This document shows, one piece after another, positions 1,794-44,540 of a DNA stretch of 45,814 nt; position 1 is the first letter of the stretch; each line of letters starts with the position of its first letter. This DNA comes from Escherichia phage DTL. The position numbers and the translations under genes are program-made. The notes under the pieces are model-generated. The model was not told the DNA's origin, did no database searches, and saw nothing but the letters and a program-made list of their open reading frames with translations. The stretch lies in sequence record MG050172. The stretch is one strand, 5' to 3'.

Positions 1794-2222
1794 ATGAATT
1801 GGCATGAACATTACGATTACAAAGATGGAAAGCTTTATAGGAAGTACCAAAACCACAATCACCCGGCAGGAAAGGAGTGTGGCTGGATTGATTTAAGGGG
1901 TTACGTTAGGACTAAGCTGTTTTCAAAGATGACTTTTGCCCATCTAGTAATATGGGAAATGCATAACGGAGAGGTTCCCGAGGGCATGGAGATCGACCAC
2001 ATTAATGGAGTTAAGCATGATAACAGGATTGAGAACCTAAGGTGCGTAGATAGGTGGGTAAACTGCAAGAATATGGCGAAGAGAAAAGACAATAAAAGCG
2101 GGCAAACTGGAGTTAGTTACGTTGAGTCAAGAAATGTTTGGGTAGTAAGTATACATGTAAACAAATTCACACATAGTCACACGTGCGATACGAAAGATGA
2201 GGCAATTTCAATTGCAAAATAA
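1794..2222 (+). CDS. HNH homing endonuclease
   Basis: Signature AHLVIWEMHNGEVPEGMEIDHINGVKHDNRIENLR; RBS GGAG upstream. Confidence 0.8.
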   Translation: MNWHEHYDYKDGKLYRKYQNHNHPAGKECGWIDLRGYVRTKLFSKMTFAHLVIWEMHNGEVPEGMEIDHINGVKHDNRIENLRCVDRWVNCKNMAKRKDNKSGQTGVSYVESRNVWVVSIHVNKFTHSHTCDTKDEAISIAK

Positions 2223-2348
2223 ATTTACGCAGAAAACCCAGAATTCACAGAGAGGCACGGTAAATAGCACTTTTTGCCTAACCCACGCCGTAGAAATACG
2301 GCATAATCACCACATCGAAACGAGACAAACCAAGAGAGGAAGCACAAA

Positions 2349-2525
2349 ATGACTAAAATGATTTATTGCACCAAGAACAACTCCAAGACACTGCCATTTA
2401 CAGTTAACCAGCCGTACAATGCAGAGTATCAGGGTGACGGATACTACAAAATTTACGGTGACGATATGACGTGGATTTTAGCGCCGATTGACGGTTCGTT
2501 GGTTGAATTTATTATCGCAGACTAG
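2349..2525 (+). CDS. small hypothetical protein (58 aa)
   Basis: ATG after RBS-like AGAGAGGAAG; preceded by CATCGAAACGAGAC leader motif; followed by terminator. Confidence 0.3.
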   Translation: MTKMIYCTKNNSKTLPFTVNQPYNAEYQGDGYYKIYGDDMTWILAPIDGSLVEFIIAD

Positions 2526-2551
2526 CGCAGAAAAAACATAGCGTTACAAAC

Positions 2552-2578
2552 GGGGAGCCTTTTGGCTCCCTTTTTTTA
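2552..2578 (+). terminator. rho-independent terminator
   Basis: GGGAGCC-TTTT-GGCTCCC hairpin followed by T7 run. Confidence 0.7.
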
Positions 2579-2655
2579 TGCTTCTTTTCCGAGCGGTGCT
2601 AATGTATCATTCTTTTATTAACTTAAACATTGACAAATACATAAAGGTGGATCAC

Positions 2656-2871
2656 ATGAGGGAAGTAATTAACGCCGCTACGGCATCAACTGGCGGTGCT
2701 GCGTTTACTGGAGCTGCAACTGGTCAAATGACTATAGCAATAATCAGCCTTATCGCTCTAATCATTTTTGGAGCTTGGGGGGCTTATTGGAAGTATAAGG
2801 ATAGCCAGGCGATTCGCAGAGCGCTTGAATCTGGGGATTTAAAAACAGCAATCAATATAAGGAGCAAATAA
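2656..2871 (+). CDS. putative holin
   Basis: Small protein with hydrophobic TM segment IAIISLIALIIFGAWGAYW and charged C-terminus; RBS AGGTGG; immediately upstream of endolysin. Confidence 0.55.
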   Translation: MREVINAATASTGGAAFTGAATGQMTIAIISLIALIIFGAWGAYWKYKDSQAIRRALESGDLKTAINIRSK

Positions 2872-3357
2872 ATGAAGCAGAAGCTGCTAATTAGCGCGGC
2901 TACGGCTGCGGCAATATACATCGCAGCGCCGCTTATTGAGCTCGTTGAGGGTGTGGAGAACAAGCCTTACATGGACATTGCCGGAATCCCTACGGTGTGT
3001 TCCGGTATTACCGGTCCAGATGTGGTCTGGGGTAAAACATACAGCAACAGGGAGTGCCGGAACCTGCTTGAGAAACACATTGAGATTCATGACAAGCATG
3101 TTCAAAGTGCTGTAACCTACCCAATAGCACCGCAGACAAGAGCGGCGTTAATCAGCTTTAGCTACAATGTTGGAGGCTCAGCGATGAGGAAATCAACTGC
3201 TGTTAAGTTGATTAACCAGGGTAAAGTGGAGCAGGGCTGTAAGGCTCTAGGCCTTTGGAATAAAGCTACCGTTAATAGCAAGAAGGTTGTGGTTAAGGGG
3301 TTAGTAAATCGCAGGAATGAGGAGATTAAGTTATGCTTAAGTGGATTGCAGCGTTAG
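2872..3357 (+). CDS. SAR endolysin (T4-lysozyme-like muramidase)
   Basis: N-terminal signal-anchor-release segment; catalytic E-x8-D-x5-T pattern (ELVEGVENKPYMDIAGIPT); start overlaps holin stop (TAAATG). Confidence 0.75.
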   Translation: MKQKLLISAATAAAIYIAAPLIELVEGVENKPYMDIAGIPTVCSGITGPDVVWGKTYSNRECRNLLEKHIEIHDKHVQSAVTYPIAPQTRAALISFSYNVGGSAMRKSTAVKLINQGKVEQGCKALGLWNKATVNSKKVVVKGLVNRRNEEIKLCLSGLQR

Positions 3358-3722
3358 TAATGTGCGTAGCTTTATCTGGGTGTTCAGCAACATCTGCTCT
3401 GACTGGTTTGATTGGCAGTAAGCCAGAGATTAGCGCTCAAGCTGGTGCAGAGAACAATAAGGTTGGTGTTGGGTTAACGAACAAGGTTGACTCCAGTAAC
3501 TCCAGCGAAGCTACGGTTAAGGATTCCAAGGTTGGGTCACTGGATAGCTCGAGCGGGAAAAAGACTGCTGATAACTCTATTAAGGCCTCAACAATTACCG
3601 CCGAAAAGATTGAGATTACTAATAACGAATCATCAGCGCTTCCGTGGGTTGGAACAGGAGCTATGGGTCTGCTGGTTTTAATTCTCATGGCATTAATCTT
3701 AAGACGTAAAAAAGCCTCCTAA
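3333..3722 (+). CDS. unimolecular spanin (T1 gp11-like): OM lipoprotein signal plus C-terminal TMD
   Basis: Lipobox LSGC near N-terminus, Ser/Thr-rich periplasmic region, C-terminal TM helix GAMGLLVLILMALIL then RRKK; overlaps endolysin 3' end. Confidence 0.7.
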   Translation: MLKWIAALVMCVALSGCSATSALTGLIGSKPEISAQAGAENNKVGVGLTNKVDSSNSSEATVKDSKVGSLDSSSGKKTADNSIKASTITAEKIEITNNESSALPWVGTGAMGLLVLILMALILRRKKAS

Positions 3723-3729
3723 TGGAGGC
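3714..3729. terminator. putative bidirectional terminator hairpin between convergent genes
   Basis: GCCTCC-TAAT-GGAGGC hairpin flanked by A-run upstream and T-run downstream. Confidence 0.45.
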
Positions 3730-3736
3730 TATATTT

Positions 3737-4072
3737 TTAGCTAAATAACTCGTCGTCCGTCATTTTTCCTATGTTCATCATCTCTTTTATGTACTTGCTC
3801 TCATACCCGCTAAGCGCCTCAAAGTTAAACTCAAATGGCCTCTTCAAGCTGCCATTGCTAACAAACTCACCACACTTACCATCAATGTATCCTGCAGTAA
3901 GCATCTTTGCGCAAAACTCCTTTGATGCAGCGCTGCAAAATTCCCTATGCGATAAGCCTGCTGCCTTGCTGAATCTCTGAGACTCCTTATGTTGGTAGAT
4001 GAATCGCGCCAAATGCTGGCGCGTAAAGTAACTAAAACTTTCACAGAACTTAAATATATCGAGCAGGAACAT
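3737..4072 (-). CDS. hypothetical protein
   Basis: 111-aa ORF immediately downstream of the 527-aa minus-strand gene. Confidence 0.4.
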   Translation of the reverse strand: MFLLDIFKFCESFSYFTRQHLARFIYQHKESQRFSKAAGLSHREFCSAASKEFCAKMLTAGYIDGKCGEFVSNGSLKRPFEFNFEALSGYESKYIKEMMNIGKMTDDELFS

Positions 4073-4075
4073 TTA

Positions 4076-5659: not shown

Positions 5660-5733
5660 TACTTCTCTCCGTATTGTTTCTGAGCGGCCATTATATCAAC
5701 GACCGCTTATAATTCATTATCAATTTTTGCTAT

Positions 5734-6087
5734 TTACAGGTATTGAGCCTCAAAATAGTACGTGCCACAGAGAGTAAAGAACCCAACACCCTCACTTCGG
5801 TAAAGCTGCCATGGCTGACCATCTTCGTCATAAATGTATCCGGCATTTTGTCCAAGCCCCGCATGAAGTGCCACCTGGTATCTCTTTCCAAGCTTGAATG
5901 ACTTCTTAAGTGATGAGTTGTGGTTAACTCTGGTTACATAAAGAGTCTTGGTCTTAATGTATTTGCCGCGCTCTTCAAGGTTAAACCATTTGCCATCTTT
6001 CTTGATTTGATCCACTCCATCTTTAACGCGAGCCTTGTATAGTACGTTTTCGTTGCTGATCCAGTTTTTAGTAATCGTAGTGGTCAT
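5734..6087 (-). CDS. hypothetical protein
   Basis: 117-aa ORF; preceded on its own strand by the TATATT -10 and CATCGAAACGAAAC leader. Confidence 0.45.
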   Translation of the reverse strand: MTTTITKNWISNENVLYKARVKDGVDQIKKDGKWFNLEERGKYIKTKTLYVTRVNHNSSLKKSFKLGKRYQVALHAGLGQNAGYIYDEDGQPWQLYRSEGVGFFTLCGTYYFEAQYL

Positions 6088-6150
6088 TTTGTTTGCCTTC
6101 GTGTGTTTCGTTTCGATGAGATGAATATACAGGAAAAGCCCCGAATGGCT

Positions 6151-6402: not shown

Positions 6403-6566
6403 TTATGTTCACCGTTAATATTCTTTGCTTTTTCTATCGCCTTAAGCATAATTTCATGACTCTCCAGCAAGTCCTCGCGGAACCAATCACCGCAAGGCCA
6501 GCCCTTTCCAGACATTCTTGATATAACTTCAAAATCCCAATAATTCAAATCTGAAGGTAAAAGCAT
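6399..6566 (-). CDS. small hypothetical protein (55 aa)
   Basis: ORF found by eye, start/stop overlapping neighbours (ATGA); below track cutoff. Confidence 0.25.
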   Translation of the reverse strand: MLLPSDLNYWDFEVISRMSGKGWPCGDWFREDLLESHEIMLKAIEKAKNINGEHK

Positions 6567-6568
6567 AG

Positions 6569-7093
6569 TTATCTCCCGTGGTTTTTGTGGAATTTACCAT
6601 TCGCAAACTCAGCTCTAGCAGCAATTGCATCATCTATGTTGTCATAAAAACCAAGATGATATCTTTTCTTTTCGTATCTGGCGTAGGCGGCGAACTTTCC
6701 TGTTCGGCTCATGTAGCAAACACCAGTAACTCCGGTCTTGTTGTCAGACCTTCTTTTGGCGTTCCTTGTGTTTTCTGACCACGTTGCCAGCCTTAGGTTT
6801 GATATGTGGTTGTTTGATTTATCACCATCTATGTGGTCAACAACCATTTCATCTGGAACCTTTTGACCTGTCTCTATCTCGTAGACTATCTTATGAACAC
6901 AGTATAGCTTTGCGTGTATGCCAACTTGATGATACCCACTATTTGAAAGCTTGCATCCGCATGGCTTATTTGCGTGTCTTTTATTCCACCTCTTTAAGTC
7001 CCAATCTATATTGTTAGTGTGAGTGTCGATCGTTCTCTCCTTGAAGTAAGGGACTCCATCAACAAGATAAATATATTTAGAGAAGTCCATCAC
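6569..7093 (-). CDS. HNH homing endonuclease
   Basis: Motif VVDHIDGDKSNNHISNLRLATWSEN plus AP2-like C-terminus. Confidence 0.8.
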   Translation of the reverse strand: MMDFSKYIYLVDGVPYFKERTIDTHTNNIDWDLKRWNKRHANKPCGCKLSNSGYHQVGIHAKLYCVHKIVYEIETGQKVPDEMVVDHIDGDKSNNHISNLRLATWSENTRNAKRRSDNKTGVTGVCYMSRTGKFAAYARYEKKRYHLGFYDNIDDAIAARAEFANGKFHKNHGR

Positions 7094-18094: not shown

Positions 18095-18784
18095 ATGGCT
18101 TACACCGAAGTTAAGGCTATCAATGCAGATAGCGGACGATTCAATGCACTACTGCAAGCAGCAATCACGGCAGGCTTTCAGCCAGTAAGTAAAATCACGG
18201 TAAATGGCTCACAGTCATATTCCCTCGTTGTTGCTAAGGGTGCTGATAGTTCAATAACTGAAGCTAAGGTGATTACTTTCACAAATATGCGCAAGCTGTT
18301 CGAAGCCATTGAGGCCGCGTCTAATGACGGATTTACCATTGACACATCAAGCCTGAACCTTACCTCTGGGCAGTTCTTTGCTTACGCATATAAAGGCAGT
18401 TCTGGTGGCGCAGCTTCAGTAGCCTGGGGTGATGTGACCGGAAAGCCAGCAACTTTTGCGCCGATTGTTGGTAATGGAGCAAACCAAGCCATGGCTGGCG
18501 ATAAGACGTTGGCTAACATTGGTGGTGTAGTTCCTGTGTCTGGACTTCCCGCCGCAAGCACCTCGGCGGCTGTGGTTATCCAGATTGGCGCTGGTGCAGT
18601 TCAAGCCATGCCTGGCAATAAGTTTGTTGCAGGTGCGGCTGTCGCTAACGTTGGAACCCAGGCCGTGGCTGGCGCTGACGCTGCTGAAGTGGCCACCTCA
18701 GCTACCACGGCAGTTAACGCAGTAGCCAGTAAAGTAAACGACCTTCTCGCGCAGCTTCGAGTAGCTAAGATTATCGCAAGCTAA
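18095..18784 (+). CDS. hypothetical Ala/Gly-rich structural protein with internal repeats
   Basis: Repeated AMAGDK / AMPGNK / AVAGAD segments; RBS AAGGAG. Confidence 0.35.
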   Translation: MAYTEVKAINADSGRFNALLQAAITAGFQPVSKITVNGSQSYSLVVAKGADSSITEAKVITFTNMRKLFEAIEAASNDGFTIDTSSLNLTSGQFFAYAYKGSSGGAASVAWGDVTGKPATFAPIVGNGANQAMAGDKTLANIGGVVPVSGLPAASTSAAVVIQIGAGAVQAMPGNKFVAGAAVANVGTQAVAGADAAEVATSATTAVNAVASKVNDLLAQLRVAKIIAS

Positions 18785-18876
18785 CACGTCGTGGGCGACT
18801 AACTTATCTGTTGATTTGCGGTCGCCCTACTGTATAATGAATCCGTAGACACATAACTGAAAAGGAACAATAAAGA

Positions 18877-26924: not shown

Positions 26925-27813
26925 TTGGAGAAAATCATGTTAAGTACAAAGTTTGAAAATCAGTTGCAAAGCCTTTTTCCTGGCGAGATTGTGACATTAA
27001 TCCAGGTTGACGGAACCTCTTTTGGCAGTCTCGTTTATTCGTTCCACAATGAGAACATTTCATACACACCTGAAGAGATCATGCTAGCCCAAATGAATGG
27101 CGAGCCACTACCAGAGAAAACCATCACCTTTCGTGGTGAAGAGTACGGGCCTCGCCCATTCGGTATCTCGGGCATTAATATGACCTCTGACGGAAAAGCC
27201 AACAAGGTTACACTAACAGTATCAAACGTAGACCAGCGCATTAGCGCATTGATTAGAACATACAACGGACTTGTTAAAGCTAAGGTTACCATATGGATTA
27301 CCACGAGAGATAACATCAATGAAGACGGAAGCATTGCTGATGGTGACTATCGCAGATTTGTTTACTTCATTGAGCGACCGAAGCAGGTTGATTACAAAAC
27401 TGCGTCATTTGAGCTTAGTAGCCCGATGGATATGGATGGCATTTACATCCCTGCCAGACTTGTTTGACTATCGCAGATTTGTTTACTTCATTGAGCGACC
27501 GAAGCAGGTTGATTACAAAACTGCGTCATTTGAGCTTAGTAGCCCGATGGATATGGATGGCATTTACATCCCTGCCAGACTTGTTCAATCGGTTTGCTAT
27601 TGGGCGTCCAGGGGCTGGTATCGTAGCGGTAATGGTTGCGGCTATGCTGGTAATAGATACTTCAACAAGGATGATGAGCCTGTGTCAGACCCCTCATTAG
27701 ACTTCTGCGCAGGAACTGTTAACAGTTGCAAAATTAGGTTTGGAGAGAATAATCAGCTGGACTTTGGTGGTTGCGCGGCAGCAAGTCTTCAGGCTAAAGC
27801 GAATCAATCATAG
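26925..27813 (+). pseudogene. minor tail protein (lambda L-like) frameshifted by a 121-bp tandem duplication
   Basis: Track ORFs 26925..27467 and 27271..27813 both encode DYRRFVYFIERPKQVDYKTASFELSSPMDMDGIYIPARLV in different frames. Confidence 0.6.
27344..27585 (+). repeat. perfect tandem direct duplication, 2 x 121 bp
   Basis: 27344..27464 and 27465..27585 identical base-for-base on hand comparison. Confidence 0.85.
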
Positions 27814-27866
27814 CACTTTTTGTTAAGAGGACGGCCCAGATTTGGGCTATCCTCTAATCTCTTAAA

Positions 27867-28364
27867 TTGGAGACAAAAATGAACTGGAATGAAATTTTCG
27901 AATACAGAGATGGCAAGATCTATTGGAAAGTTAGCCCTGGCAGGAGGGCTAAGGTTGGTTCGGAAGCTGGATCAAATCAAATAAAAGGGTATAGATTTGT
28001 GAAATTTCACGGAGTTTTATATATGACACACATGGTTATTTGGGAGATGCATAACTGTGAAATACCGCATGGAATGGAGGTTGACCATTTAAATCACATT
28101 AGGGACGATAACAGGATAGAGAATTTAAGAGTTGTTACAAAGTCAATTAATCAGAGGAATGCATCTAAAAGAATTGATAATAAAAGCGGTTTTACAGGCG
28201 TTTCTTGGTATCCCAAATATTCAAAGTGGAATGCTTACGCGACAGTAAATTCCAAGAGGTTTAATCTTGGTTACTTTGAATCAAAGCAAGATGCCTGTGT
28301 GGCTGTTAAAAAATTTAGGTCCATAAATTATTTTCATAAAAACCATGGAGTTGATTTATGTTAA
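27867..28364 (+). CDS. HNH homing endonuclease
   Basis: Motif HMVIWEMHNCEIPHGMEVDHLNHIRDDNRIENLR; inserted between L-like and K-like tail genes. Confidence 0.8.
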   Translation: METKMNWNEIFEYRDGKIYWKVSPGRRAKVGSEAGSNQIKGYRFVKFHGVLYMTHMVIWEMHNCEIPHGMEVDHLNHIRDDNRIENLRVVTKSINQRNASKRIDNKSGFTGVSWYPKYSKWNAYATVNSKRFNLGYFESKQDACVAVKKFRSINYFHKNHGVDLC

Positions 28365-29116
28365 CAAAAAGATGCAAATTAGAAATCTTCCAGCACGCAA
28401 AAGAAGTTTACCCGCAAGAATGCTGTGGTGTTGTCACGCAGAAGGGTCGGGCGCAGAAGTACCACAGAATCACCAACGCCAGCAAAGACCCTGAAAATGA
28501 GTTTATCCTTGATTCAAGTGAGTATGCAGATGCTCTCCTTGAGTTGGCTCACAATGAATCTATTGTTTACGTAGTCCACTCTCACACGGGTGATGGTGCT
28601 ACAACAAGGCCTAGCCCGGCGGATATCTGTAGCTGCAATGAGTGCGAGATTCCTTATGTTATCGTAAGTATCCCAGAGGGAGATATGCGTATTCTTGAAC
28701 CATCAACCATGCCGCTGATTGGTCGCCCGTGGGGGTTGGGTAGCTTTGATTGCTGGGAGCTGGTTATGTCGTTTCACAAGAAATACGGAGTCAAACTGAG
28801 TGACTACCGAGTTAATTACCCGTGGTGGGAGAAGCGGTACAATGAAAATATCTATGACGACAACTGGATTAATGAAGGATTTGAGCTGGTAAAAACTTCA
28901 GATATTCCGATTGGCTCAATGATTATGATGCAGGTGCAAAGTGATGTGACAAACCACGCTGGAATCTACATTGGCAATAACAGATTCATTCACCATCTAT
29001 ATGGTAAAATGAGTTCTGTTGATATCTACTCCAATTACTGGCGCGAGCGCACTGTGCGAATCGTTCGCCATAAGGATTTACCAGAGGATGTAATTTATGA
29101 CCCAGAAACTGATTGA
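28358..29116 (+). CDS. tail assembly protein (lambda K-like; JAB/MPN plus NlpC/P60-like)
   Basis: JAMM-like HSHTGDGATTRPSPAD and Cys/His C-terminal half. Confidence 0.7.
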   Translation: MLTKRCKLEIFQHAKEVYPQECCGVVTQKGRAQKYHRITNASKDPENEFILDSSEYADALLELAHNESIVYVVHSHTGDGATTRPSPADICSCNECEIPYVIVSIPEGDMRILEPSTMPLIGRPWGLGSFDCWELVMSFHKKYGVKLSDYRVNYPWWEKRYNENIYDDNWINEGFELVKTSDIPIGSMIMMQVQSDVTNHAGIYIGNNRFIHHLYGKMSSVDIYSNYWRERTVRIVRHKDLPEDVIYDPETD

Positions 29117-34133: not shown

Positions 34134-34366
34134 TCCTTAGAACCATGGTCTTTAATGGAGCCACCGTAACCGCCACCAGTGGCCTTAATTCCATCGTAGC
34201 GCACATCAACTTCGCCAGCTGGAACAACCACACCATTTTTCCATTTAGCCACGCATACGCCGCTTGCTTGCGTTGCACACCAACCATCAGGACGTGGACC
34301 TGATGAACAACCAACTGTCATTATTACTGCTGCTGAGATGATTACTGATTTGATGAAGTTAGTCAC
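34124..34366 (-). CDS. putative Cor-like superinfection-exclusion lipoprotein
   Basis: 80 aa, lipobox TVGCSS, GTG start, placed just beyond the J-like gene. Confidence 0.45.
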
Positions 34367-34399
34367 TTTGTACTCCTTAGTTAGTATGTTTCGTTTCGA

Positions 34400-34860
34400 T
34401 GGGATAACTATACAACCGTCAGTGAGGAATGTCTTTAGCTATTCGTGCTATTGTATACACGTAACCGATGTAACTGCGTGTATACCAGTGCCATCCGCGA
34501 GAAATCGTATACGCCTAGTTACGCCTAGTTACGCATTGGTTACACTAAAATATCTATATATATCAACCTTTTACTATTATTATTATTATTATATATATTA
34601 CTGTGTATATCATGTAACTACCTCTATAGGGTGTTGCGGTTATAAATTTCTAATATGTACATTTATACAGTATCTATCAACCAGCACACCAACGCACCCT
34701 CCGCGAGAAGCGGTATACACGATATACACGCTGGTTACGCTGAGCTATGGCTGGCTTGATATGCCAAAAAACGTAACTAGTGCCAACGCCTACACGTAAT
34801 TACAAAGATTCACGCGTAAGTTTGAATCAACGATTGGAGAAACCAATTGGACCCAAGCCA
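34400..34860. promoter_or_regulatory. divergent control region B: iteron-like TAGTTACGC repeats, (TA)n and (ATT)n tracts
   Basis: CCTAGTTACG x2 at ~34513..34537, (ATT)n at ~34574..34592, GAGCTATGGCTGGCT block; homologous to 7740..8170. Confidence 0.5.
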
Positions 34861-34913
34861 TGAACTCTCATATAGTTAACCCATCGAAAGCGAACAACCA
34901 GAGAGATAAAGAA

Positions 34914-35108
34914 ATGACCTACTACATTATCAAAGAGAAAAACAATGCGCTGTTCGGCGACTGCTACTTTGGCGGCCACTCTGGATACACCACAGATAAG
35001 AACGAGGCCGACAGATTCGAGACTAAAGAAGAAGCCCGAGATGTTCTGACCGGGTACTTCACTAAAGAAGATTTGAAATCTGTTAAGGTAGTTAAGGTTA
35101 AAATTTAA
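34914..35108 (+). CDS. hypothetical protein
   Basis: ATG 34914 preferred over track start 34860; preceded by CATCGAAAGCGAAC leader variant. Confidence 0.35.
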   Translation: MTYYIIKEKNNALFGDCYFGGHSGYTTDKNEADRFETKEEARDVLTGYFTKEDLKSVKVVKVKI

Positions 35109-35109
35109 A

Positions 35110-35583
35110 ATGGAATACAAACTCTACTTCAATTACGACAATGGAAAGTTGATATGGAAAGTCAAAAAGAAATCAGGAAATCCGGGCTCAGAGGCTGGTA
35201 GTGTGATGAGGGATGGTTACATCATGGTTGGTTTAAATAGAAAACTAATTCTTGCTCACAGAATAGTTTGGGAAATGCTTAAAGGCCCGATACCTGAAGG
35301 TATGGAGATTGATCATATTAATCATTGTAGGTCAGACAATAGGATAGAAAACTTAAGGATGGTGAGTAAGCCGATAAATCAAAGAAATAGATCGAGATCA
35401 AAAAATAACACAAGCGTATTCACGGGAGTTTGTTGGAGTAAGTCAGCTTCAAAGTTGGTCTCATCAATGAAAGTTAACGGGAAAAAAATTCATCTTGGAT
35501 CGTTCGATGAAATACAAGATGCAATAGCTGCAAGAAAGTCAGCAAACCAAAAGTATAAATTTCACAAAAATCATGGAGAATAA
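35110..35583 (+). CDS. HNH homing endonuclease
   Basis: Motif HRIVWEMLKGPIPEGMEIDHINHCRSDNRIENLR. Confidence 0.8.
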   Translation: MEYKLYFNYDNGKLIWKVKKKSGNPGSEAGSVMRDGYIMVGLNRKLILAHRIVWEMLKGPIPEGMEIDHINHCRSDNRIENLRMVSKPINQRNRSRSKNNTSVFTGVCWSKSASKLVSSMKVNGKKIHLGSFDEIQDAIAARKSANQKYKFHKNHGE

Positions 35584-36550
35584 AATGTTTAAGGTTTTTA
35601 CGCGAGAAGAGTTAAGCAACGAAGAGTATCACTCAGAGTCTGACCACATCTCCGGTAGCTCACTTGTCGAGATTATCCAGGGCTCGCCAGCTAAGTGGAA
35701 ATTCAAGCGGCGTAATAGCGACAGCAAGGCGCTAAAGTTTGGAACCCTAAGCCACACGATGATTCTGGAGCAGGATGTATTTGATAAAGAATACCTTCGC
35801 GAAACCGATCTTGATGCCATCGAAGGCTTAATTACAAGCCAGACCGGATTATCAGCAGCACTTAAAAAAGTTGGCGTAGCTGGCACGTCTGGGAAGGGGT
35901 ATAGCGAGCTCGTAGAGATGATGTATCGTTCAGGTGAGTATTGGGATGTTAAATGGCTAATTGAGCAGCAGGATAGTGCTCAGGCTATTGCGGAGGGCAA
36001 GGAGCTAGTTAGCGCAGCAGATTACGACAAGGTTGTCGCGATGCGCGAGGTTCTTTGTAATATTCCTGCGTATGATGCAATTGTGAACAGTGAGACTGCG
36101 CAGAAGGAGTTATCAATCTTCGGTGAGATTCTAGGTGTTGGCGTTAAGATTCGAATTGACCACGTAGATGTTATTGATGGGGTTGTATGCATTACCGACC
36201 TGAAGACGACAGCCAGCGCATCACCTCAGGAGTTTGGTAGACTTGCATTCAAGCATGGTTATCTTGCAAAAATGGCGCTACAGCACGATGTTTTTGTTAG
36301 GGCTTTTAATGAAAAAAGAAAAACAAAAGTAAGGCTACTTGCGATCGAGAAAGAGGAGCCTTACCTACCAATGCTTTACAGCATTACAGAAGAGCAACTG
36401 AAGGTTGGCCGCAGGATGTATTTAGAGGCGCTTGCCACTTACAAAAAGTGCAAAGAGAATGATGAGTGGCCAGGTTATGCAATGGGCGCAACAGAGATTG
36501 ATTTAGATGTTCCTGAGTGGGATATGAGGAAGTATAGAGATGAAATATAG
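35573..36550 (+). CDS. PD-(D/E)XK family exonuclease (RecE/YqaJ-like recombination nuclease)
   Basis: Motif ITDLKT (D-x-K core); sits upstream of the ERF and SSB genes. Confidence 0.55.
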   Translation: MENKMFKVFTREELSNEEYHSESDHISGSSLVEIIQGSPAKWKFKRRNSDSKALKFGTLSHTMILEQDVFDKEYLRETDLDAIEGLITSQTGLSAALKKVGVAGTSGKGYSELVEMMYRSGEYWDVKWLIEQQDSAQAIAEGKELVSAADYDKVVAMREVLCNIPAYDAIVNSETAQKELSIFGEILGVGVKIRIDHVDVIDGVVCITDLKTTASASPQEFGRLAFKHGYLAKMALQHDVFVRAFNEKRKTKVRLLAIEKEEPYLPMLYSITEEQLKVGRRMYLEALATYKKCKENDEWPGYAMGATEIDLDVPEWDMRKYRDEI

Positions 36551-37741: not shown

Positions 37742-37767
37742 ATAAAGCCCCTTTCGGGGCTTTTTTT
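37742..37767. terminator. bidirectional terminator
   Basis: A-run, AGCCCC-TTTC-GGGGCT, T7 run. Confidence 0.7.
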
Positions 37768-38563
37768 ATGGAGCTACAATCATGAATGATATGAAAACAG
37801 ACTGTGAACCACTTGTGTTTGGCGATATCACTACTGCATTACCAGTTGTTAATTCATATGCTCTTATTAATACGTAGGCATAACCATCACCATCGACAGA
37901 AAAATTACCTATTGTTGCAGTTTTGGCTGGTGAGCCATCTCCAGTTATTGAGCAAAATAATAGAGGTCTGAGTTCCCCAGTAGTGCCAGCGTAATTGGAG
38001 TATTTGTGACTAAGAGTTACCCTAAATGTAGTTCTGTCTTCAGCTCGTACAGAAGCAACGCCGAAGTTTGAAAAAGTAGATGAAAGCTCAGGAGCTATGC
38101 TGTTTGTTGATCTAACCATTCCAGATGCAATAACTCGATAAGTTGAGTATCTTGATGATCCTCCAACAATCTTAACTCTAGGATTTGAGAATGTGGAAAC
38201 CGTATTCGATTGCGCACCATTGTTTCCAACCCTGAAAAGAACAAGAACAGTGCTACCATTTATTGGCGCAACATATCTCATTACTTGCTCTGAGTTTCTA
38301 TTAGATACCGGTATTGGGTTAGAGTAAACAACATTTGATAGTGAATCAACGCAAATGTCAACGGAAGCGCCAGGTGAGCCTGTACATTTTGCTTTTACCC
38401 TAAACTCAATACAATCACCAGGGCCTATTAAATACTGCGCATATCTGTATGTTTCCACACCACTACAAACAAGAGTCCACGCGGATACATTACTCGTTCC
38501 AGATGGCGTTCTAGACACCCAAACTCCACTGTCGAAAGATGCAGTAGTCATTAAGTTGCTCAT
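37766..38563 (-). CDS. hypothetical protein co-transcribed with tail fiber
   Basis: Ser/Thr/Gly/Asn-rich; ATG 38563 after RBS AAGGA chosen over track start 38629. Confidence 0.4.
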   Translation of the reverse strand: MSNLMTTASFDSGVWVSRTPSGTSNVSAWTLVCSGVETYRYAQYLIGPGDCIEFRVKAKCTGSPGASVDICVDSLSNVVYSNPIPVSNRNSEQVMRYVAPINGSTVLVLFRVGNNGAQSNTVSTFSNPRVKIVGGSSRYSTYRVIASGMVRSTNSIAPELSSTFSNFGVASVRAEDRTTFRVTLSHKYSNYAGTTGELRPLLFCSITGDGSPAKTATIGNFSVDGDGYAYVLIRAYELTTGNAVVISPNTSGSQSVFISFMIVAP

Positions 38564-38579
38564 AAATGAATCCTTAAAA

Positions 38580-39956
38580 TTAGTTGAATGAGTAAATTGG
38601 CTCGTTAAACATAAACTTATTAAACCCATGACTTAGTGCTAGCCTTGCTGAAACTGGCGTATCAAGAGTCCATAGTGAGTGTTGCAATCCTGCCACCTCC
38701 AGCTTTTTCAAAAGCTCCTTACTTGCCCTCCACGCTTGAAACTGAATGTAGCACTTACCTAGAGATTTTCCATCCTGAATTACGGAGTCTGTAACTTCGC
38801 CATATATAAGGTATCCAACAGCTATATCTTTGTCTAGTTCTCTGACCTTTTGTAACTTGCTTATGTCAGCAGCGCAAAGAACGCACAAGTTTTCCATTCC
38901 AAGCTCTTTAACCATATCAACTACAATTGATGCGTCATCAGTACTTCTTAAATGAGCAAGTTCTGCGTAAATTTTACACCCTCTTGACTTGCAGAAGAGT
39001 AGTACATCATAGAGCAGTGGAACTGGTTCCCCTGCGTACCTATAGGTGCTGAATTTAGATCCAGCATCAAGACCAAGAACATATGAAGATTGAAGCTGTG
39101 TAGTAATGCCAGTTCCGTTGGTTGTTCTTGATACATTTTCATCATGCATTAGTACCGGAATACCATCCAAGGTAATTGAAATATCACATTCCAGAGCATT
39201 TGCCCCAAGTGAAAGCGAACCCTCCATTGCTGCCATTGTGTTTTCAGGGAAAACCAAAGAAAAACCACGATGAGCAATTAGTTCTTGCTTCTGATTTTCG
39301 TACCTGTCAGATTGCATTCTTGAGTAAACATCAATATTCTGCCTTGCTAGTGGCTTGTCCGTTAAATCAGAGAATGCCAAATCCTTTCTTAATAAGTTTT
39401 GCGTATCAAGTGATGCGGCATAATCTGCAGCTTCCAGAGCCGATTCCGCTGCCGCATCTTTATATGTTGATGCACTACTGGCGCTTGCAGCCGCTGCATC
39501 CTTGTCAGTTGAAACCTGAGATGCATCAGATGATACCTGAGCAGCAATAGTAACAATTTCTACAAATTGTGTGTTAACTTGGCTTACATCATTTGAAAAT
39601 TTATCCTGATCAAAATCCTTAAAAATATCAACCGCTGTTGAAACCTCTGTTTCGCGTGACTGATAATATCGAAGAGTCTCCGCAACATCCTGAGCCAACC
39701 CCTGAACACTAATTCCGTCATGCGCAAGGATCGCATAACCCGTTCCAACAGGAACAGTTTCGCCATTAGGGTTGTATACAGCCATTGATGTGTCACTGGT
39801 GATTTCAGAGATGGTGTAAATCTGTACTGGCTCCGTTTTAAAAACTAAGGTAGAACCAACTCTAATCAATGTTAGTGGCATAGTCCATTGAGTGCCAACG
39901 CCAGTAACTTGGCCGTTAGCGGCTAAACTGGCAGTACCAGTATCATAAATTGCCAT
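38580..39956 (-). CDS. tail fiber protein with C-terminal glycerophosphodiester phosphodiesterase (GDPD) domain
   Basis: GDPD signature AHRGFSLVFPENTMAAMEGSLSLGANALECDISITLDGIPVLMHDENV; ATG 39956 after RBS GGAG. Confidence 0.6.
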   Translation of the reverse strand: MAIYDTGTASLAANGQVTGVGTQWTMPLTLIRVGSTLVFKTEPVQIYTISEITSDTSMAVYNPNGETVPVGTGYAILAHDGISVQGLAQDVAETLRYYQSRETEVSTAVDIFKDFDQDKFSNDVSQVNTQFVEIVTIAAQVSSDASQVSTDKDAAAASASSASTYKDAAAESALEAADYAASLDTQNLLRKDLAFSDLTDKPLARQNIDVYSRMQSDRYENQKQELIAHRGFSLVFPENTMAAMEGSLSLGANALECDISITLDGIPVLMHDENVSRTTNGTGITTQLQSSYVLGLDAGSKFSTYRYAGEPVPLLYDVLLFCKSRGCKIYAELAHLRSTDDASIVVDMVKELGMENLCVLCAADISKLQKVRELDKDIAVGYLIYGEVTDSVIQDGKSLGKCYIQFQAWRASKELLKKLEVAGLQHSLWTLDTPVSARLALSHGFNKFMFNEPIYSFN

Positions 39957-40026
39957 TGTGTAAAGTCTCCATTTGTAAAATAGCACTAATTGCTAAGTTG
40001 GATTGTAGCATCTTTCAGGTATAAAA

Positions 40027-40043: not shown

Positions 40044-40967
40044 TTAGCTATTCAATAAATCACTCGCCTTATATATCTTCTTCCTGATGCCGCTCTTGAA
40101 TGAGTATTCATCATTTGGTATTACCACCTCAACGTTCCTGTCATCCGCAACGCAAAGTAATTCCATATCAAGATTGCACGCCACTCTCAACTTGTAGTTT
40201 TTGAGCGCATAAGCAACCATCTCCATATTGTAGCTGGAGTGGCAAACAAGCGCGCAGCGGTTCCCAGTAGCAAGATGAACGCGAACACCATCAATCCAAT
40301 TATCGACAAGATAAGCGTACTCATCACTTTTAAAGGTACCAATAACAGCAACTGACTGACGGGTATAATCTTTTGCAGCATAACTAACAACTCCCTCTTC
40401 ATTTATAAACATTACATTGCACATCTCATCTGACAACCCATCACTATAAGCCATAAAGCACGGTATTGCGTGTATTAGTTCTCCTGATTTTGTCCTGCCA
40501 ACATCAAAACCAAACTCGCTATAGATTCCCTCGTATATACTGAGCGGAGTTGATTCTACTCTTTCCGTCCTTTCCATTATCTCTAAGCACCTTTTGTGGT
40601 CAATCTGAGCGCCCATTTTGTATAGTTTGGTTCTTGATGCTTGCTTGTTTGCTTTAACTATAACCTCAATTGGTGTTAAGTTCAGCCAGTCACCAAGCAA
40701 ATTTACTGAATCGGCGAAGGACGATCCAGTGCACTTCATGACCCATCCTATACCGGAGTCACTTCCGCATTTCGAACAAACTGCCGCGCCATTTCCTTTT
40801 TCACTGCCTATTTCGTCGGTAAATCTGAATCTGTCAGTGCCAAAGCAGTATGGGCATGGTCCGTGCTTCTTACTTAGGTGTCTATCATTCCAACCAAGTT
40901 CCTTTGCATAAAATGATTTCCACAATCCGGCCATCTTAGGTATAACTTCATTCTTATCGTAATTCAT
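40044..40967 (-). CDS. DNA primase (zinc-ribbon plus TOPRIM-like)
   Basis: Zn-binding CPYCFG...CSKCG at N-terminus; acidic TOPRIM-like C-terminal half. Confidence 0.65.
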   Translation of the reverse strand: MNYDKNEVIPKMAGLWKSFYAKELGWNDRHLSKKHGPCPYCFGTDRFRFTDEIGSEKGNGAAVCSKCGSDSGIGWVMKCTGSSFADSVNLLGDWLNLTPIEVIVKANKQASRTKLYKMGAQIDHKRCLEIMERTERVESTPLSIYEGIYSEFGFDVGRTKSGELIHAIPCFMAYSDGLSDEMCNVMFINEEGVVSYAAKDYTRQSVAVIGTFKSDEYAYLVDNWIDGVRVHLATGNRCALVCHSSYNMEMVAYALKNYKLRVACNLDMELLCVADDRNVEVVIPNDEYSFKSGIRKKIYKASDLLNS

Positions 40968-41443
40968 TTGCTTAACCCGTGATTTTCGTGAAAGTTGTAT
41001 TTTCTCTCTGCTTCAATTCTTACTTTATACGCCTGCTCTGGAGTATCGAAGTTCCCAAGGTGTAGCTGCTTGCCGTCAACCTTGATGTGAGCCTTAAATT
41101 TTCCGTGATTTAGCTTTGCCACTCCACAATAACCAGTTGTTGATAAAACGCTAATCTTGCAATTTCTTGAGTTACCTTGATTTGTTGTTACTCTTAGGTT
41201 TTCTATTCTGTTATCTAATTTGTTATGGTTTATATGATCAATGTAGTCGCCATTTTGAAGTTCTCCATTAAACATCTCCCACACAACTCTATGTACATAA
41301 GTCCTAAAGCCATTAACAGACACTTTGTAATAGCCAGATGTAGATAGTGAGTTGCACTCATCGCCAACCTTAACACGTCTTGCAGTGCTAATCTTCCAAT
41401 GCAATTTGCCATCTACATAGTAAAAATAATCATGCCAGTTCAT
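40964..41443 (-). CDS. HNH homing endonuclease
   Basis: Motif HRVVWEMFNGELQNGDYIDHINHNKLDNRIENLR. Confidence 0.8.
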   Translation of the reverse strand: MNWHDYFYYVDGKLHWKISTARRVKVGDECNSLSTSGYYKVSVNGFRTYVHRVVWEMFNGELQNGDYIDHINHNKLDNRIENLRVTTNQGNSRNCKISVLSTTGYCGVAKLNHGKFKAHIKVDGKQLHLGNFDTPEQAYKVRIEAERKYNFHENHGLSK

Positions 41444-41495
41444 TTTCTTCTCTCCAATAAAAAAAGGATGTACCGATTATGGCACATCCAATTAT

Positions 41496-41969
41496 TTACT
41501 CTTTAGCTTTTCGTGCGGCTTCGTTAGCTGCCTTAATCTTTCGCCATGATCGACACTCTGGCTTGGTGGCCAATTCAGCCTCGGTAACCACGCGAAGCAT
41601 GTGACGCTTCTTGCATCTAAGTGTCAGCGGCTTGCCGTTACCGTCGAATTGCAGGTCTGGGCGGCAGAATGTGGCTCGAAAGCCTTCTCCATTTCGCTTA
41701 TAGTAGTTGTGCGACAGCTGGGCACCGCGTGCAGAAATCATTCCACGCTTAAACCACTCCTCTACAGCCTGTGGAGTTACCTTTAACTGCTTTGCGATAT
41801 TCGCCTTTGTGCCGAAGAAATCAAGAACTATCTCGAGTCTCGCTCGTAGTCCGGATCTTACTTCATCTTTTAAAACGTAGTAACCTGAAGGTCGCTTCCG
41901 TTTCTTCTTGTCTTCAGTGCGGACAGTTCCGTTATTCCCGTTAATGGTTCGCTTGTCAACTGCATTCAT
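41496..41969 (-). CDS. putative HTH DNA-binding protein / transcriptional regulator
   Basis: Basic N-terminus and HTH-like ANIAKQLKVTPQAVEEWFKRG. Confidence 0.4.
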   Translation of the reverse strand: MNAVDKRTINGNNGTVRTEDKKKRKRPSGYYVLKDEVRSGLRARLEIVLDFFGTKANIAKQLKVTPQAVEEWFKRGMISARGAQLSHNYYKRNGEGFRATFCRPDLQFDGNGKPLTLRCKKRHMLRVVTEAELATKPECRSWRKIKAANEAARKAKE

Positions 41970-42070
41970 TTAATCACCTCAATAGCATTTTTTGTTAAAA
42001 GTCATTCTGATTTGATGGTAGTATTGTACTCAATTAAACGCTACAAGACAATTTTTATAGGAATTTAGAT

Positions 42071-44065
42071 ATGTTGCCTATCGAGAGGCTGGTTGCCAAC
42101 TTTGATAAAGAAAGAATTAAACAGATTCAGAAAGATTACCAGTTTGGCGAGATAACCCCTTACGAGTTCCAGTGCGTTACATTTGATGCTATCGGAAAGG
42201 CAATTGGGAAGTACGAAGCACCATTTATCGCTGACCTTTCCGTGTCTGCTGGTAAGACAATCATTCTTGCCATGATTGGTAAGCGCATGGAGCAGCTTGG
42301 GCTTCCTTATATGGTTCTATCTCGCCAGTCAGAGATAATCAGTCAGAACTCAGAAGAACTTCGTAATTTCGGCATCCGTAATAGCGTCTATTGCGCCGGC
42401 CTTAACGTTAAATCGGTTTACTACCCAATCATAGTTGCCAGTGAAGGTACGGCAGCCAACGGCTTGTTTAAGGGTCTTGGTGACTACGTTCCGGCCGTTA
42501 TCGCTATAGATGAGTGTCACATGGTCGATCATATGGATATTGTAGAGGCCGAAGAGAACGAAGAAACATTTGAGCAAATGAGCACAAAGAAAGGGGAGAT
42601 GGTTTTTAAGGATGGCGTAAATACCGGACTGCTTGGCACGGGTCGCGCGCAGTACACGCTAATCATTACTGAAATGAAGCGGCGTTGTCGTGAGAAATAC
42701 GGGCGTGAGCTTCGTATATTCGGTCTAACTGGCAGTCCGTATCGCAATAACGACCATATCGTCGTTAGTAATCCTAATATCCGTGGATTCTGGCGTAAAA
42801 CAGTAATTCAGGTCCCAACAAATTACCTGGTTGATTTGGGTTTTGTTGTTCCAACTGTTTACGGTGAGGTTGGTGATTTGGGATATGACCTTAGCGAATT
42901 CTCTCCTGATGGTAGTGATGGTGTGAAAGACTTTAGCAAGAAAGAAATGGAAGCGATGCAGGAAAAAATTCATCAAAACCAGTCCATGACTCAAAAGATT
43001 ATGCAGTTCGCAGCCAAGTTTATGGAAACTCGTAACGCAGCACTAGTAACTTGCTCAGGCAAGCGGCATTGCGAGGAAGCAGCAGCGGCGCTTCCTAAGG
43101 GTGTAACCTGGGCTATAGTAACTGACTCTACTGGTGAGAAAAAGCGTCGTGAGATTCTTTCTGACGCAGCTGAAGGTAAGTATAAATTCATCTTTCAGAT
43201 TGGTTGCCTCACAACCGGCGTGAACGTTCCGCCATGGGACACGTCAATAATTCTTCGAAAGGTTGGTAGCATCACGTTACTGATTCAGCTTTTGGGGCGA
43301 GGTATGCGAATTCTTAAGAAGAAGCATAAGGAAATGGGAATGGTTAAGGATGATCACGTGGTGCTGGACTTCGCTGGTACTCTTGATGAAATGGCGGAAT
43401 TGTACTTTGACCCAATCATAGAGGAAGTGCAGGACCAGAAATTTAAGTCTTCACGCAAAGGCGGCGATGAGCCAAGAATATGTCCGGCCTGTAGTTACGA
43501 GAACTCTCTTTTTGCTCGTCGTTGCAATAACGTAATTGACGGGAAGCGTTGTGAGCATTTTTTTACATTTCGCTTATGTGAAGATATAGAGGACCCGCAG
43601 ACAAAAGTTACTATTAAGAAAGGTTGTGGTGAAAAGAATGATATCGCCGCTAAAAACTGCCGCTGCTGCGGAGAAATGCTTATTGACCCTAACGCAAAAT
43701 TGTCTGGAAAGATGTATCGACAAGGTGATTGGTTGAGAGTTTACGGATTCAGCATTGGATTAACTAAAAACCAAACTGGAATAGTTGCTCGCTATGAAAT
43801 CATGTCGCATAGTGGGGATAGGTTTGTTGCTTACGAAACTTTCTTCCCAGAGAGTGACCATCGAGTTTGCTCTGTTAAGTGGAAGGCATTTTGCCAGGCG
43901 CACATCCAGAACAAAACGGAGGCATTTCGCATAGGAAGACTTCGCAATGCAAAAATGATTATGACTAACGCAAGTCAATTTCGTGAGCCAATGCGAGTGA
44001 CTCATAGAAAGAACCAGAAAGGTCAGGATATTATCGCCAATAAATCTTTTACTATGGAGGATTGA
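42071..44065 (+). CDS. SF2 DNA helicase (DExH-type) with C-terminal Cys-rich region
   Basis: Walker A SVSAGKT, Walker B/DECH IAIDECHMV, multiple CxxC pairs near C-terminus. Confidence 0.75.
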   Translation: MLPIERLVANFDKERIKQIQKDYQFGEITPYEFQCVTFDAIGKAIGKYEAPFIADLSVSAGKTIILAMIGKRMEQLGLPYMVLSRQSEIISQNSEELRNFGIRNSVYCAGLNVKSVYYPIIVASEGTAANGLFKGLGDYVPAVIAIDECHMVDHMDIVEAEENEETFEQMSTKKGEMVFKDGVNTGLLGTGRAQYTLIITEMKRRCREKYGRELRIFGLTGSPYRNNDHIVVSNPNIRGFWRKTVIQVPTNYLVDLGFVVPTVYGEVGDLGYDLSEFSPDGSDGVKDFSKKEMEAMQEKIHQNQSMTQKIMQFAAKFMETRNAALVTCSGKRHCEEAAAALPKGVTWAIVTDSTGEKKRREILSDAAEGKYKFIFQIGCLTTGVNVPPWDTSIILRKVGSITLLIQLLGRGMRILKKKHKEMGMVKDDHVVLDFAGTLDEMAELYFDPIIEEVQDQKFKSSRKGGDEPRICPACSYENSLFARRCNNVIDGKRCEHFFTFRLCEDIEDPQTKVTIKKGCGEKNDIAAKNCRCCGEMLIDPNAKLSGKMYRQGDWLRVYGFSIGLTKNQTGIVARYEIMSHSGDRFVAYETFFPESDHRVCSVKWKAFCQAHIQNKTEAFRIGRLRNAKMIMTNASQFREPMRVTHRKNQKGQDIIANKSFTMED

Positions 44066-44066
44066 T

Positions 44067-44540
44067 ATGAATTGGAATGACATTTTCGAGTATAGTGATG
44101 GGCAGCTATTCTGGAATGAGAAGGGAAAAAGCCGCAAGATGGGAGTGGCGGTTGGTGCCATTCGTGACAATGGTTATATCCAGGTAGGGTACAATCGCAA
44201 GCTGTACCTTGCTCATCGCATCGTGTGGGAAAAGCATAATGGGCCGATACCTGAGGGCATGATGGTAGATCACATAAACCATATTAGAGATGATAATAGG
44301 ATAGAAAACCTTAGATTGGTAAATTGCAAGGACAATACAAGAAACACCAGCATAAGGTCTGACAACAATACTGGTCACCACGGTGTTTGCTGGTGTAATC
44401 GCAGGCTTAAGTGGTACGCAAGGATAAATATTGACGGTAAAAATAAGTTTTTAGGTTACTTCATAACAAAAGCTATGGCCATAGAGGCAAGAAAGCAAGC
44501 CGAGAAGTTATATGGATTCCACGAAAACCATGGAGTTTAG
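44067..44540 (+). CDS. HNH homing endonuclease
   Basis: Motif HRIVWEKHNGPIPEGMMVDHINHIRDDNRIENLR. Confidence 0.8.
   Translation: MNWNDIFEYSDGQLFWNEKGKSRKMGVAVGAIRDNGYIQVGYNRKLYLAHRIVWEKHNGPIPEGMMVDHINHIRDDNRIENLRLVNCKDNTRNTSIRSDNNTGHHGVCWCNRRLKWYARINIDGKNKFLGYFITKAMAIEARKQAEKLYGFHENHGV

Follow-up and report, generated by a model that had tools for sequence, protein, structure and literature searches.

The genome of Escherichia phage DTL (GenBank MG050172; the entire 45,814-nt stretch analyzed is referred to as the window) was found to carry six genes of the HNH endonuclease class, numbered HNH#1 to HNH#6 in their order along the window. All six are, in all likelihood, freestanding, intron-less homing endonuclease genes of the HNH(HNN)-AP2 type, which would reside as selfish elements in the intergenic junctions of this T1-like phage. 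The analysis established directly the family to which they belong, the predicted fold, the residues that are conserved, the exact points of insertion, the presence/absence polymorphism, and the peaks of identity, and from these we infer cleavage activity and its specificity, a nick or a double-strand break at the target, and homing itself.

The window aligns collinearly with the T1-like coliphages (family Drexlerviridae), and its nearest match is Guelphvirus EC3a, with 86-88% nucleotide identity. The first and last bases of the window adjoin in EC3a, indicating that the window is the entire genome, rotated to begin at a gene. The DTL sequence was published in 2018 (MG050172; 454 pyrosequencing, RAST annotation, 67 open reading frames, ORFs), and the phage was described as viable and highly lytic (PMC5816109). 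In Table 1 of that paper the HNH ORFs were labelled "Endonuclease", with HNH#2 given as 'AP2 domain protein', and homing was apparently not discussed, the word occurring only in the name of a BLAST match in the same table (PMC5816109). At least five of the six genes are named "HNH endonuclease" at NCBI.

The HNH genes and their predicted architecture

An earlier note on this DNA had listed six HNH genes, and ORFs were present at all of the coordinates it gave. A six-frame hidden Markov model search, tblastn, and a regex scan returned exactly six such genes in the window. All of them matched Pfam HNH_3 (PF13392; E 1e-17 to 1e-21), scoring 61-74 bits against a cutoff of 24.8, and the two copies that were tested against PHROG 99 ('HNH endonuclease') matched at E 1e-61 and 3e-46. 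Searches for other homing endonuclease families (GIY-YIG, LAGLIDADG, and others) returned none in the stretches that are missing from EC3a. The start of HNH#3 is likely ATG 27879, with GGAG 7 nt upstream, rather than TTG 27867, and that of HNH#2 is likely ATG 7090 rather than GTG 7093; the corrected lengths (486 and 522 bp, respectively) match those at NCBI and in the DTL paper. Together the six genes comprise 2,865 bp, or 6.3% of the genome. Functions of the genes beside them were assigned by synteny with the annotated relative EC3a.

1794..2222, plus strand: HNH#1, 142 aa, cut by an in-frame TAA; downstream of a DNA-repair-exonuclease-like gene (586-1722); HNH_3 E 1.6e-19
6569..7090, minus strand: HNH#2, 173 aa, flanked by small early genes on both sides; its N-terminal module contains a 14-residue insertion; HNH_3 E 8.7e-17
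27879..28364, plus strand: HNH#3, 161 aa, between tail genes L and K; cassette ~27814-28357; HNH_3 E 4e-19
35110..35583, plus strand: HNH#4, 157 aa, flanked by a small conserved ORF (34860-35108) and the exonuclease VIII (exoVIII) gene; HNH_3 E 1.6e-19
40964..41443, minus strand: HNH#5, 159 aa, between a transcriptional-regulator gene and the primase gene; HNH_3 E 3.6e-18
44067..44540, plus strand: HNH#6, 157 aa, between the helicase and VRR-NUC genes; HNH_3 E 1e-20

The copy first placed at 27867 (start now 27879) does lie between the L-like and K-like genes, as had been noted. The note also placed several other copies beside replication genes; the neighbours are primase for HNH#5, helicase and VRR-NUC for HNH#6, exoVIII for HNH#4, a DNA-repair-exonuclease-like gene for HNH#1, and small early genes for HNH#2.

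Pairwise identity among the six copies is 31-49%, and they represent separate old lineages rather than products of recent spread within the genome. Residues D68, H69, N77, N81, N90, and N93 are invariant in all six. The catalytic residues, whose loss the earlier note had named as evidence that would count against it, were thus retained (D68, H69, N81, and N90), while the signature it had described as shared proved approximate: the AHR.VWE motif reads AHLVIWE in HNH#1, THMVIWE in HNH#3, and VHKIVYE in HNH#2.

The profile of the six proteins matched I-HmuI of Bacillus phage SPO1 (PDB 1U3E) at E 5.8e-10 over ~113 aligned positions. In this alignment D68, H69, N81, and N90 fall on I-HmuI residues D74, H75, N87, and N96, the reported catalytic set of that enzyme (Shen et al. 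2004), with His as the general base, the Asp next to it, and Asn residues in structural and metal-binding roles. An AlphaFold model of HNH#6, computed from an alignment of the six paralogues only (mean predicted local distance difference test score 81), begins with beta-hairpins and continues through the HNH core and a disordered linker at residues 89-100 to a C-terminal unit (107-148) with strands at 107-110, 115-122, and 125-132 followed by a helix at 135-148. A Foldseek search of the PDB with this model ranked I-HmuI 1U3E first (E 5e-4, probability 1.0, sequence identity 23%), followed by AP2 domains that superimposed on the C-terminus (Arabidopsis TEM1, root-mean-square deviation 1.6 Å over 50 columns, probability 1.0; Plasmodium AP2). 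Pfam AP2 scored below its cutoff of 33.3 in HNH#3 (19.7 bits) and HNH#2 (14.2 bits) and gave nothing in the other copies; a PDB profile matched the WRI1 AP2 domain at E 1.6e-3, and database homologues carry a precomputed PF00847 (AP2) match. On the basis of homology and the HNH#6 model, each ~160-aa protein is predicted to combine an I-HmuI-like N-terminal beta-hairpin module, a beta-beta-alpha-metal HNH core without zinc-binding cysteines, a flexible linker, and an AP2-like domain.

I-HmuI and the DTL proteins are alike in the N-terminal DNA-binding module and the HNH core. I-HmuI, as reportedly described by Shen et al. in 2004, is intron-encoded and has a C-terminal helix-turn-helix region, whereas the DTL proteins are freestanding and end in the AP2-like domain. 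Endonucleases of the HNN-AP2 or HNH-AP2 type were reportedly described by Magnani et al. in 2004. Several copies of HNH-AP2 genes occur in the ~45-kb Xanthomonas siphophages Xp10, OP1, and Xop411, at varying positions and in different stages of degeneration; conserved flanks were absent in that set, and sequence-independent spread was suggested (PMC2248197). The Xanthomonas and DTL genes share the HNN core without zinc-binding cysteines, followed by an AP2 unit that in DTL is predicted from structure and sub-threshold in Pfam, and both sets occur in multiple copies, at positions that vary among relatives and at various stages of decay. The DTL set belongs to a different phage family and host, and three of its copies show site-specific occupancy and identity peaks. 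The freestanding Seg and Mob endonucleases of T4-like phages undergo intron-less homing, with marker exclusion, co-conversion of flanks, and cleavage that falls within an adjacent gene, away from the site of insertion. T4-like phages and DTL have in common that these genes lie between conserved genes, that relatives differ in whether they carry them, and that flanking markers appear to be co-converted (the pattern at HNH#5 and HNH#6); in DTL, too, cleavage would be expected within an adjacent gene. The Seg proteins, however, are GIY-YIG enzymes and the Mob proteins are HNH enzymes not known to carry an AP2 module, and for DTL homing is proposed from sequence.

HNH proteins are needed for DNA packaging in some siphophages (HK97 gp74), and this precedent would allow at least one of the DTL copies to be a terminase-associated packaging protein of the gp74 type. 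The terminase genes occupy 12464-14561, with the nearest HNH gene more than 5 kb away, the DTL proteins are of the I-HmuI/HNH_3 type with DNA-binding modules, and relatives package their DNA without these genes. A terminase-cofactor role was rejected on gene position, and its probability is judged to be close to nil.

Insertion sites and their occupancy among relatives

Every HNH gene occupies precisely the space that separates an upstream gene's stop codon from the start codon of the gene that follows. The empty target sites that the earlier note had proposed to look for in related genomes were found: five of the six genes are missing from EC3a, with clean break points, and phage G8 supplied the empty allele for HNH#5, which EC3a carries. 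In the empty alleles the spacers are ~1-13 nt long at sites 2, 3, 4, and 6, and are terminator-containing intergenic spacers at sites 1 and 5. The flanking genes are intact and contiguous in these alleles, and no intron or intein setting was seen for any copy.

At sites 2 and 6, the HNH start codon sits where the start of the downstream gene lies in the empty allele, and at site 5 the stop codon of HNH#5 overlaps the primase start (ATGA). The last HNH codons are conserved (…H-K/E-N-H-G; CATGGAG or CACGGGAG) and supply a GGAG Shine-Dalgarno sequence 5-8 nt upstream of the downstream start, so that GGAG precedes K at 28358, exoVIII at 35585, VRR-NUC at GTG 44542, and the small gene at 6566. The cassette thus replaces the ribosome-binding site that it displaces, and these junction features would avoid polar effects on the host operon.

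28340-28357, 35570-35584, and 44528-44541, plus strand, and 6567-6585, minus strand: junction sequences at the HNH 3′ ends, with Shine-Dalgarno sequences
28358..29116, plus strand: K-like tail gene, with an ATG that overlaps the stop of HNH#3 and a GGAG inside the final codons of HNH#3; the orthologue in contig L021 matches Pfam Prok-JAB/NLPC_P60
35585..36550, plus strand: exoVIII (RecE-like) gene; likely start ATG 35585, right after the HNH#4 stop, by alignment with EC3a
44542..44961, plus strand: VRR-NUC gene; likely start GTG 44542 (ATG in EC3a); Pfam VRR_NUC E 1.5e-8

Upstream of HNH#4, an in-frame TAA at 34797-34799 corresponds to GAA in the long gp44 annotation of EC3a, and ORFs 34338-34799 and 34860-35108 match the N- and C-terminal parts of one PHROG (35664), respectively. 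Its interpretation as a second broken gene was rejected: the region is a poorly conserved 5′ extension of EC3a gp44, the conserved short ORF (PHROG 5247) is intact, and the stop probably lies in non-coding sequence.

Occupancy was surveyed by blastn of each HNH gene with 400-bp flanks against 50,697 phage records (the GenBank phage collection), which was used instead of IMG/VR, where a scan with the K protein returned 8 loci only, too few for a survey.

Site 1: 347 flank-matching records; the same gene only in BEK1-1 and G8 (~81% nucleotide identity), and other HNH lineages in ACG-M12, Sf12, and AugustePiccard
Site 2: 131 flank-matching records; 0 occupied
Site 3: 693 flank-matching records; a full-length match only in AHP42 (69% nucleotide identity), whose protein is 47% identical
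Site 4: 309 flank-matching records; 0 occupied
Site 5: 270 flank-matching records; 8 occupied, at 94-97% nucleotide identity
Site 6: 194 flank-matching records; XT34 at 72% nucleotide identity, and ESCO41 in part

Larger databases yielded close copies at the same sites for HNH#6, HNH#3, and HNH#2 (95-100% amino acid identity). An identical HNH#6 protein occurs at the same junction in five other contigs (L016-L020), HNH#3-like copies occur at the same site in the uncultured contigs L021-L023, and HNH#2-like copies, 95% identical, occur at the same site in the metagenome contigs L024-L027. True HNH#3 orthologues (97% amino acid identity) were found only in uncultured contigs. The HNH#5 protein is 99% identical in EC3a, AugustePiccard, and RobRod40. 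The same alleles are thus present at the same sites in other contigs for HNH#1, #2, #3, #5, and #6, while no copy of HNH#4 was found outside DTL: of 5.8 billion proteins, the best other one is 59% identical. Occupancy is independent from site to site: L017 carries HNH#5 and HNH#6 and neither HNH#1 nor HNH#2, and in L016 HNH#6 is accompanied by HNH genes of other kinds at site 1 (163 aa) and site 5 (174 aa), with site 4 empty. In other phages, HNH genes of unrelated lineages occupy these junctions.

Homologues of these HNH genes were detected in 3,072 phage records, and among the best 60 of these the highest counts were six places in XT34 and five each in Sf12 and KpnS_VR6602. Six copies per genome is therefore a high number, as the earlier note had stressed, yet not an unprecedented one.

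The junction of the tail genes L and K was examined in twelve relatives, of which six were empty (with a spacer of ~10 bp), five carried an HNH gene, and one carried a Rha-like gene on the reverse strand. GenBank annotations place HNH genes there in Rtp (rtp40), ACG-M12, JeanPiccard, Sf12, and AHP42 (gp22), and a Rha-like gene in IME253 and ZL19. The view that L and K are normally adjacent therefore applies to the empty genomes only; an insert at this junction is common in T1-like phages, and the junction is a known hot spot. The HNH genes of Rtp, AHP42, ACG-M12, JeanPiccard, and Sf12 share the junction, the orientation, and the protein family with HNH#3, but belong to other lineages. The AHP42 gene was ruled out as an HNH#3 orthologue, its protein (47% identical) being no nearer to HNH#3 than the paralogues are.

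Identity blocks, decay, and competing explanations

Comparison of DTL with EC3a in 250-bp windows gave a background mean of ~87% identity, with a maximum of 96.4% outside the high blocks. Windows of at least 98% occurred only at 40751-41500 (HNH#5) and at 43001-43750 (just upstream of the HNH#6 site). Two blocks that appear to travel with an HNH gene were delimited with the aid of other carriers.

40660..41560, minus strand: HNH#5 block, the gene plus ~300 bp of the primase 5′ end (zinc-ribbon region); 93-100% nucleotide identity in three carriers, against a background of ~87%
43000..44600, plus strand: HNH#6 block, the gene together with ~1.07 kb from the helicase 3′ end; 97-100% nucleotide identity in L016-L020, with flanks at ~86%

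In 100-bp windows from 40660 to 41460, EC3a, AugustePiccard, and RobRod40 are 98-100% identical to DTL, except for one 96% window in AugustePiccard, and the next 100 bp are 93-98% identical. In the same primase segment the HNH-less phage G8 is only 68-72% identical to DTL. Since AugustePiccard is only 62-79% identical to DTL in the nearby helicase gene, the HNH#5 block has clearly moved laterally. The N-terminal ~95 residues of the primase (the zinc ribbon) occur in three divergent allelic forms, which track the state of the junction (HNH#5, the other, 174-aa HNH, or empty). Past the motif LGDWLNL, the primase allelic forms converge (DTL 40660-40967; L016 5910-6839; L014 2481-3404). At site 6, the last ~200 bp of the helicase gene (43860-44065) are 73-77% identical in the HNH-less EC3a and G8. 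The peak at HNH#3 is of a different kind: L021-L023 are 98-99% identical to DTL over exactly 27800-28400, with flanks of 84-90% on both sides and no co-conversion tract. By sequence, the patterns at HNH#3, HNH#5, and HNH#6 fit recent homing, accompanied at HNH#5 and HNH#6 by apparent co-conversion and target-site immunity.

These patterns suggest the following mechanism. Upon co-infection by a carrier of an HNH gene and an HNH-less relative, the enzyme would nick or cut the HNH-less allele near the junction, probably within the first ~300 bp of the primase gene for HNH#5, and probably within the last ~200 bp of the helicase gene for HNH#6. The break would be repaired by the RecE-like exonuclease, Erf-like annealase, and SSB of the phage, with the HNH-carrying genome as the template, and repair would copy the HNH gene together with neighbouring sequence into the recipient. 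The phage has a recombination module of this kind: the EC3a annotation lists exonuclease VIII, an Erf-like annealing protein, and SSB, and Pfam DUF3799 and ERF match the L016 orthologues. The carrier would be protected, its own adjoining segment having diverged. The cassettes would spare the host operon by beginning at or next to the former downstream start codon, and by supplying a Shine-Dalgarno sequence from their last codons.

Several observations weigh against this interpretation. Cleavage by the DTL HNH proteins, and the sites of cleavage, are predictions from sequence and one model, and the AP2 assignment is sub-threshold by sequence and depends on a structure predicted from six sequences only. 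The identity profiles were drawn from a handful of relatives, picked for carrying the gene. HNH#2 is 91-96% identical to its counterparts, compared with ~88-92% in the flanks, and so lacks a clear peak, and HNH#4 is without a close comparator. The 900-bp block at 42960-43860 is 97-100% identical to EC3a, which lacks HNH#6, and its first ~500 bp are also 97-100% identical to G8, likewise without HNH#6. This block keeps the fit to homing short of proof; phage genomes are mosaic, and high-identity blocks can arise without the transfer of an endonuclease gene. It may represent an independent mosaic exchange, or the loss of HNH#6 from EC3a and G8 by recombination near the junction.

The same block would be expected if the HNH genes were passive cargo ('morons'), moved by ordinary homologous or illegitimate recombination at gene boundaries, with endonuclease activity irrelevant and the identity peaks reflecting general mosaicism. 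The Rha-like inserts of IME253 and ZL19 at the L-K junction, which are not HNH genes, and the HNH#3 peak, which stops exactly at the cassette borders, are also in line with such transfer. However, the active-site residues have remained invariant despite 31-49% identity, implying selection for catalysis. The HNH#5 and HNH#6 blocks, moreover, reach into neighbouring essential genes, in stretches where the HNH-less alleles diverge strongly, as selection for target-site immunity predicts, and the blocks of at least 98% identity to EC3a are confined to HNH sites and their immediate surroundings. Transfer as passive cargo is therefore considered unlikely.

It is also conceivable that the HNH genes are kept for a benefit to the phage, through the exclusion of co-infecting competitors, degradation of host DNA, or DNA-binding regulation of the AP2 type. 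All of the genes except HNH#1 are intact and closely integrated into early and replication operons, the proteins carry a predicted AP2-like DNA-binding domain, and marker exclusion by freestanding endonucleases is known in T4. Each gene is nevertheless dispensable, as closely related genomes, mostly of isolated phages, lack it, and one copy is already truncated. A benefit of this kind is held to be quite improbable as the main explanation, although competitor exclusion would be the same molecular act as homing, so that the two differ more in emphasis than in mechanism.

Signs of decay were found in HNH#1 and among relatives of other copies. HNH#1 reads …ISIAK-stop-IYAENPEFTERHGK-stop, whereas the 161-aa BEK1-1 orthologue reads …SYAKSVYEGNPEFTERHGK-stop, which identifies an in-frame nonsense codon in HNH#1.

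2223..2267, plus strand: HNH#1 C-terminal remnant, IYAENPEFTERHGK-stop after the premature stop, which aligns with BEK1-1 …SVYEGNPEFTERHGK-stop

The DTL paper gives this gene (ORF 4) as 474 bp, equivalent to 1794-2267, and thus reads through the TAA at 2220-2222 (PMC5816109). The AP2 region of HNH#1 is also altered. The protein is 65% identical to the BEK1-1 orthologue at the same site, so that any spread of this copy must be old. The 90%-identity clusters of HNH#2, HNH#3, and HNH#5 contain shortened members of 92-124 aa, on contigs of up to 16-47 kb, and a shortened HNH#3-like copy is located at the L-K junction of L003 (IMG/VR 3300000290_000010). The shortened copies suggest decay in other lineages, and together with the HNH#1 stop they match the known cycle of invasion, fixation, degeneration, and loss. 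The six genes would accordingly represent different stages of that cycle as judged from sequence: HNH#3, HNH#5, and HNH#6 appear to have spread recently, HNH#2 is probably older or vertically inherited, and HNH#1 seems to be decaying, while HNH#4, found only in DTL, falls outside such a judgement.

The earlier note's claim of active intron-less homing was thus supported for the intron-less setting and, as far as recent spread is concerned, for HNH#3, HNH#5, and HNH#6, but activity cannot be claimed for all six, and the reading is no more than plausible for HNH#1 with its in-frame stop, for HNH#2 without a peak, and for HNH#4 without a close relative. Its suggestion that the HNH genes explain local rearrangements was not supported, DTL being collinear with EC3a save for insertions, deletions, and a tail-fibre swap.

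A more far-reaching possibility, advanced here tentatively and with considerable doubt, is that in T1-like phages each HNH-AP2 gene is only one half of the cassette that travels, the other half being a linked allele of the neighbouring stretch of an essential replication gene, in a form that resists cleavage. Competition between rival endonuclease lineages for one junction would then be what chiefly drives the modular exchange of alleles in the replication proteins of this phage family. The linked segments would be the zinc-ribbon region of the primase, with at least three allelic forms (HNH#5-linked, 174-aa-HNH-linked, and HNH-less), and the C-terminal ~70 codons of the helicase.

The gene L duplication, other features, and implications

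The tail gene upstream of HNH#3 is interrupted in the deposited sequence.

26937..27813, plus strand: L-like tail-tip gene, split by an exact 121-bp tandem duplication (27344-27464 and 27465-27585)

The two copies of the duplication agree at 121/121 positions, with no microhomology at the borders. The duplication shifts the frame of this essential gene and leads to a TGA at 27465, and with one copy taken out the ORF is restored to 756 bp, as long as EC3a gp51. The identity of the gene as L-like was indicated by Pfam Phage_tail_L in relatives. L is intact, at 251 aa, in the contigs that carry HNH#3, and the DTL paper gives L (ORF 46) a length of 756 bp (PMC5816109), which the sequence allows only if the duplication is absent. 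Considering the published length, the intact L of other HNH#3 carriers, and the viability and highly lytic nature of the phage, the duplication is most likely artefactual, belonging to the deposited 454 contig rather than to the phage. The intact 251-aa L and three fragment forms were all missing from the protein collection. An origin of the duplication as a repair scar of HNH#3 homing was considered unlikely on the same evidence and on the lack of microhomology at the borders.

Other mismatches were found between the published ORF table (PMC5816109) and the deposited DTL sequence, among them ORF 24 of the paper (474 bp, plus strand, an HNH endonuclease upstream of terminase), which has no counterpart in the deposited sequence. 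ORFs 10075-10326 and 10339-10722 resemble the two halves of one nucleotide-kinase-like gene, the former with weak P-loop matches and the latter matching the C-terminal part of the PHROG 139 dNMP kinase profile, and the paper gives one best hit (SP126_00225) for both (PMC5816109). The split could be a frameshift, either real or caused by a 454 homopolymer error.

A 1.36-kb segment (17470-18830), bounded by the gene that follows the head protease and by the major capsid gene, is missing from EC3a; it holds ORF 17522-18007, without a family match, and a 'virion structural protein' ORF (PHROG 1954) at 18095-18784. The lateral tail-fibre region (37776-39659, minus strand) is replaced relative to EC3a; ORF 38580-39986 matched tail-fibre PHROGs and has a phosphodiesterase-like C-terminal part, and ORF 37766-38629 had no PHROG match. 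One tRNA-Arg (anticodon TCT) is located at 12077-12154, upstream of the terminase genes, as it is in EC3a.

Little of this is new at the level of the genes, which were already annotated in the DTL record; the protein class has been described since 2004, and the annotation of an L-K HNH gene in a T1-like phage goes back to the deposit of the Rtp genome. For users of the record, the apparently artefactual 121-bp duplication that breaks an essential tail gene deserves attention. The loci around HNH#3, HNH#5, and HNH#6 carry laterally transferred sequence, and should be avoided in Drexlerviridae phylogenies. DTL, together with its HNH-less relatives EC3a and G8, would offer a convenient small system for the study of intron-less homing by HNH-AP2 enzymes.

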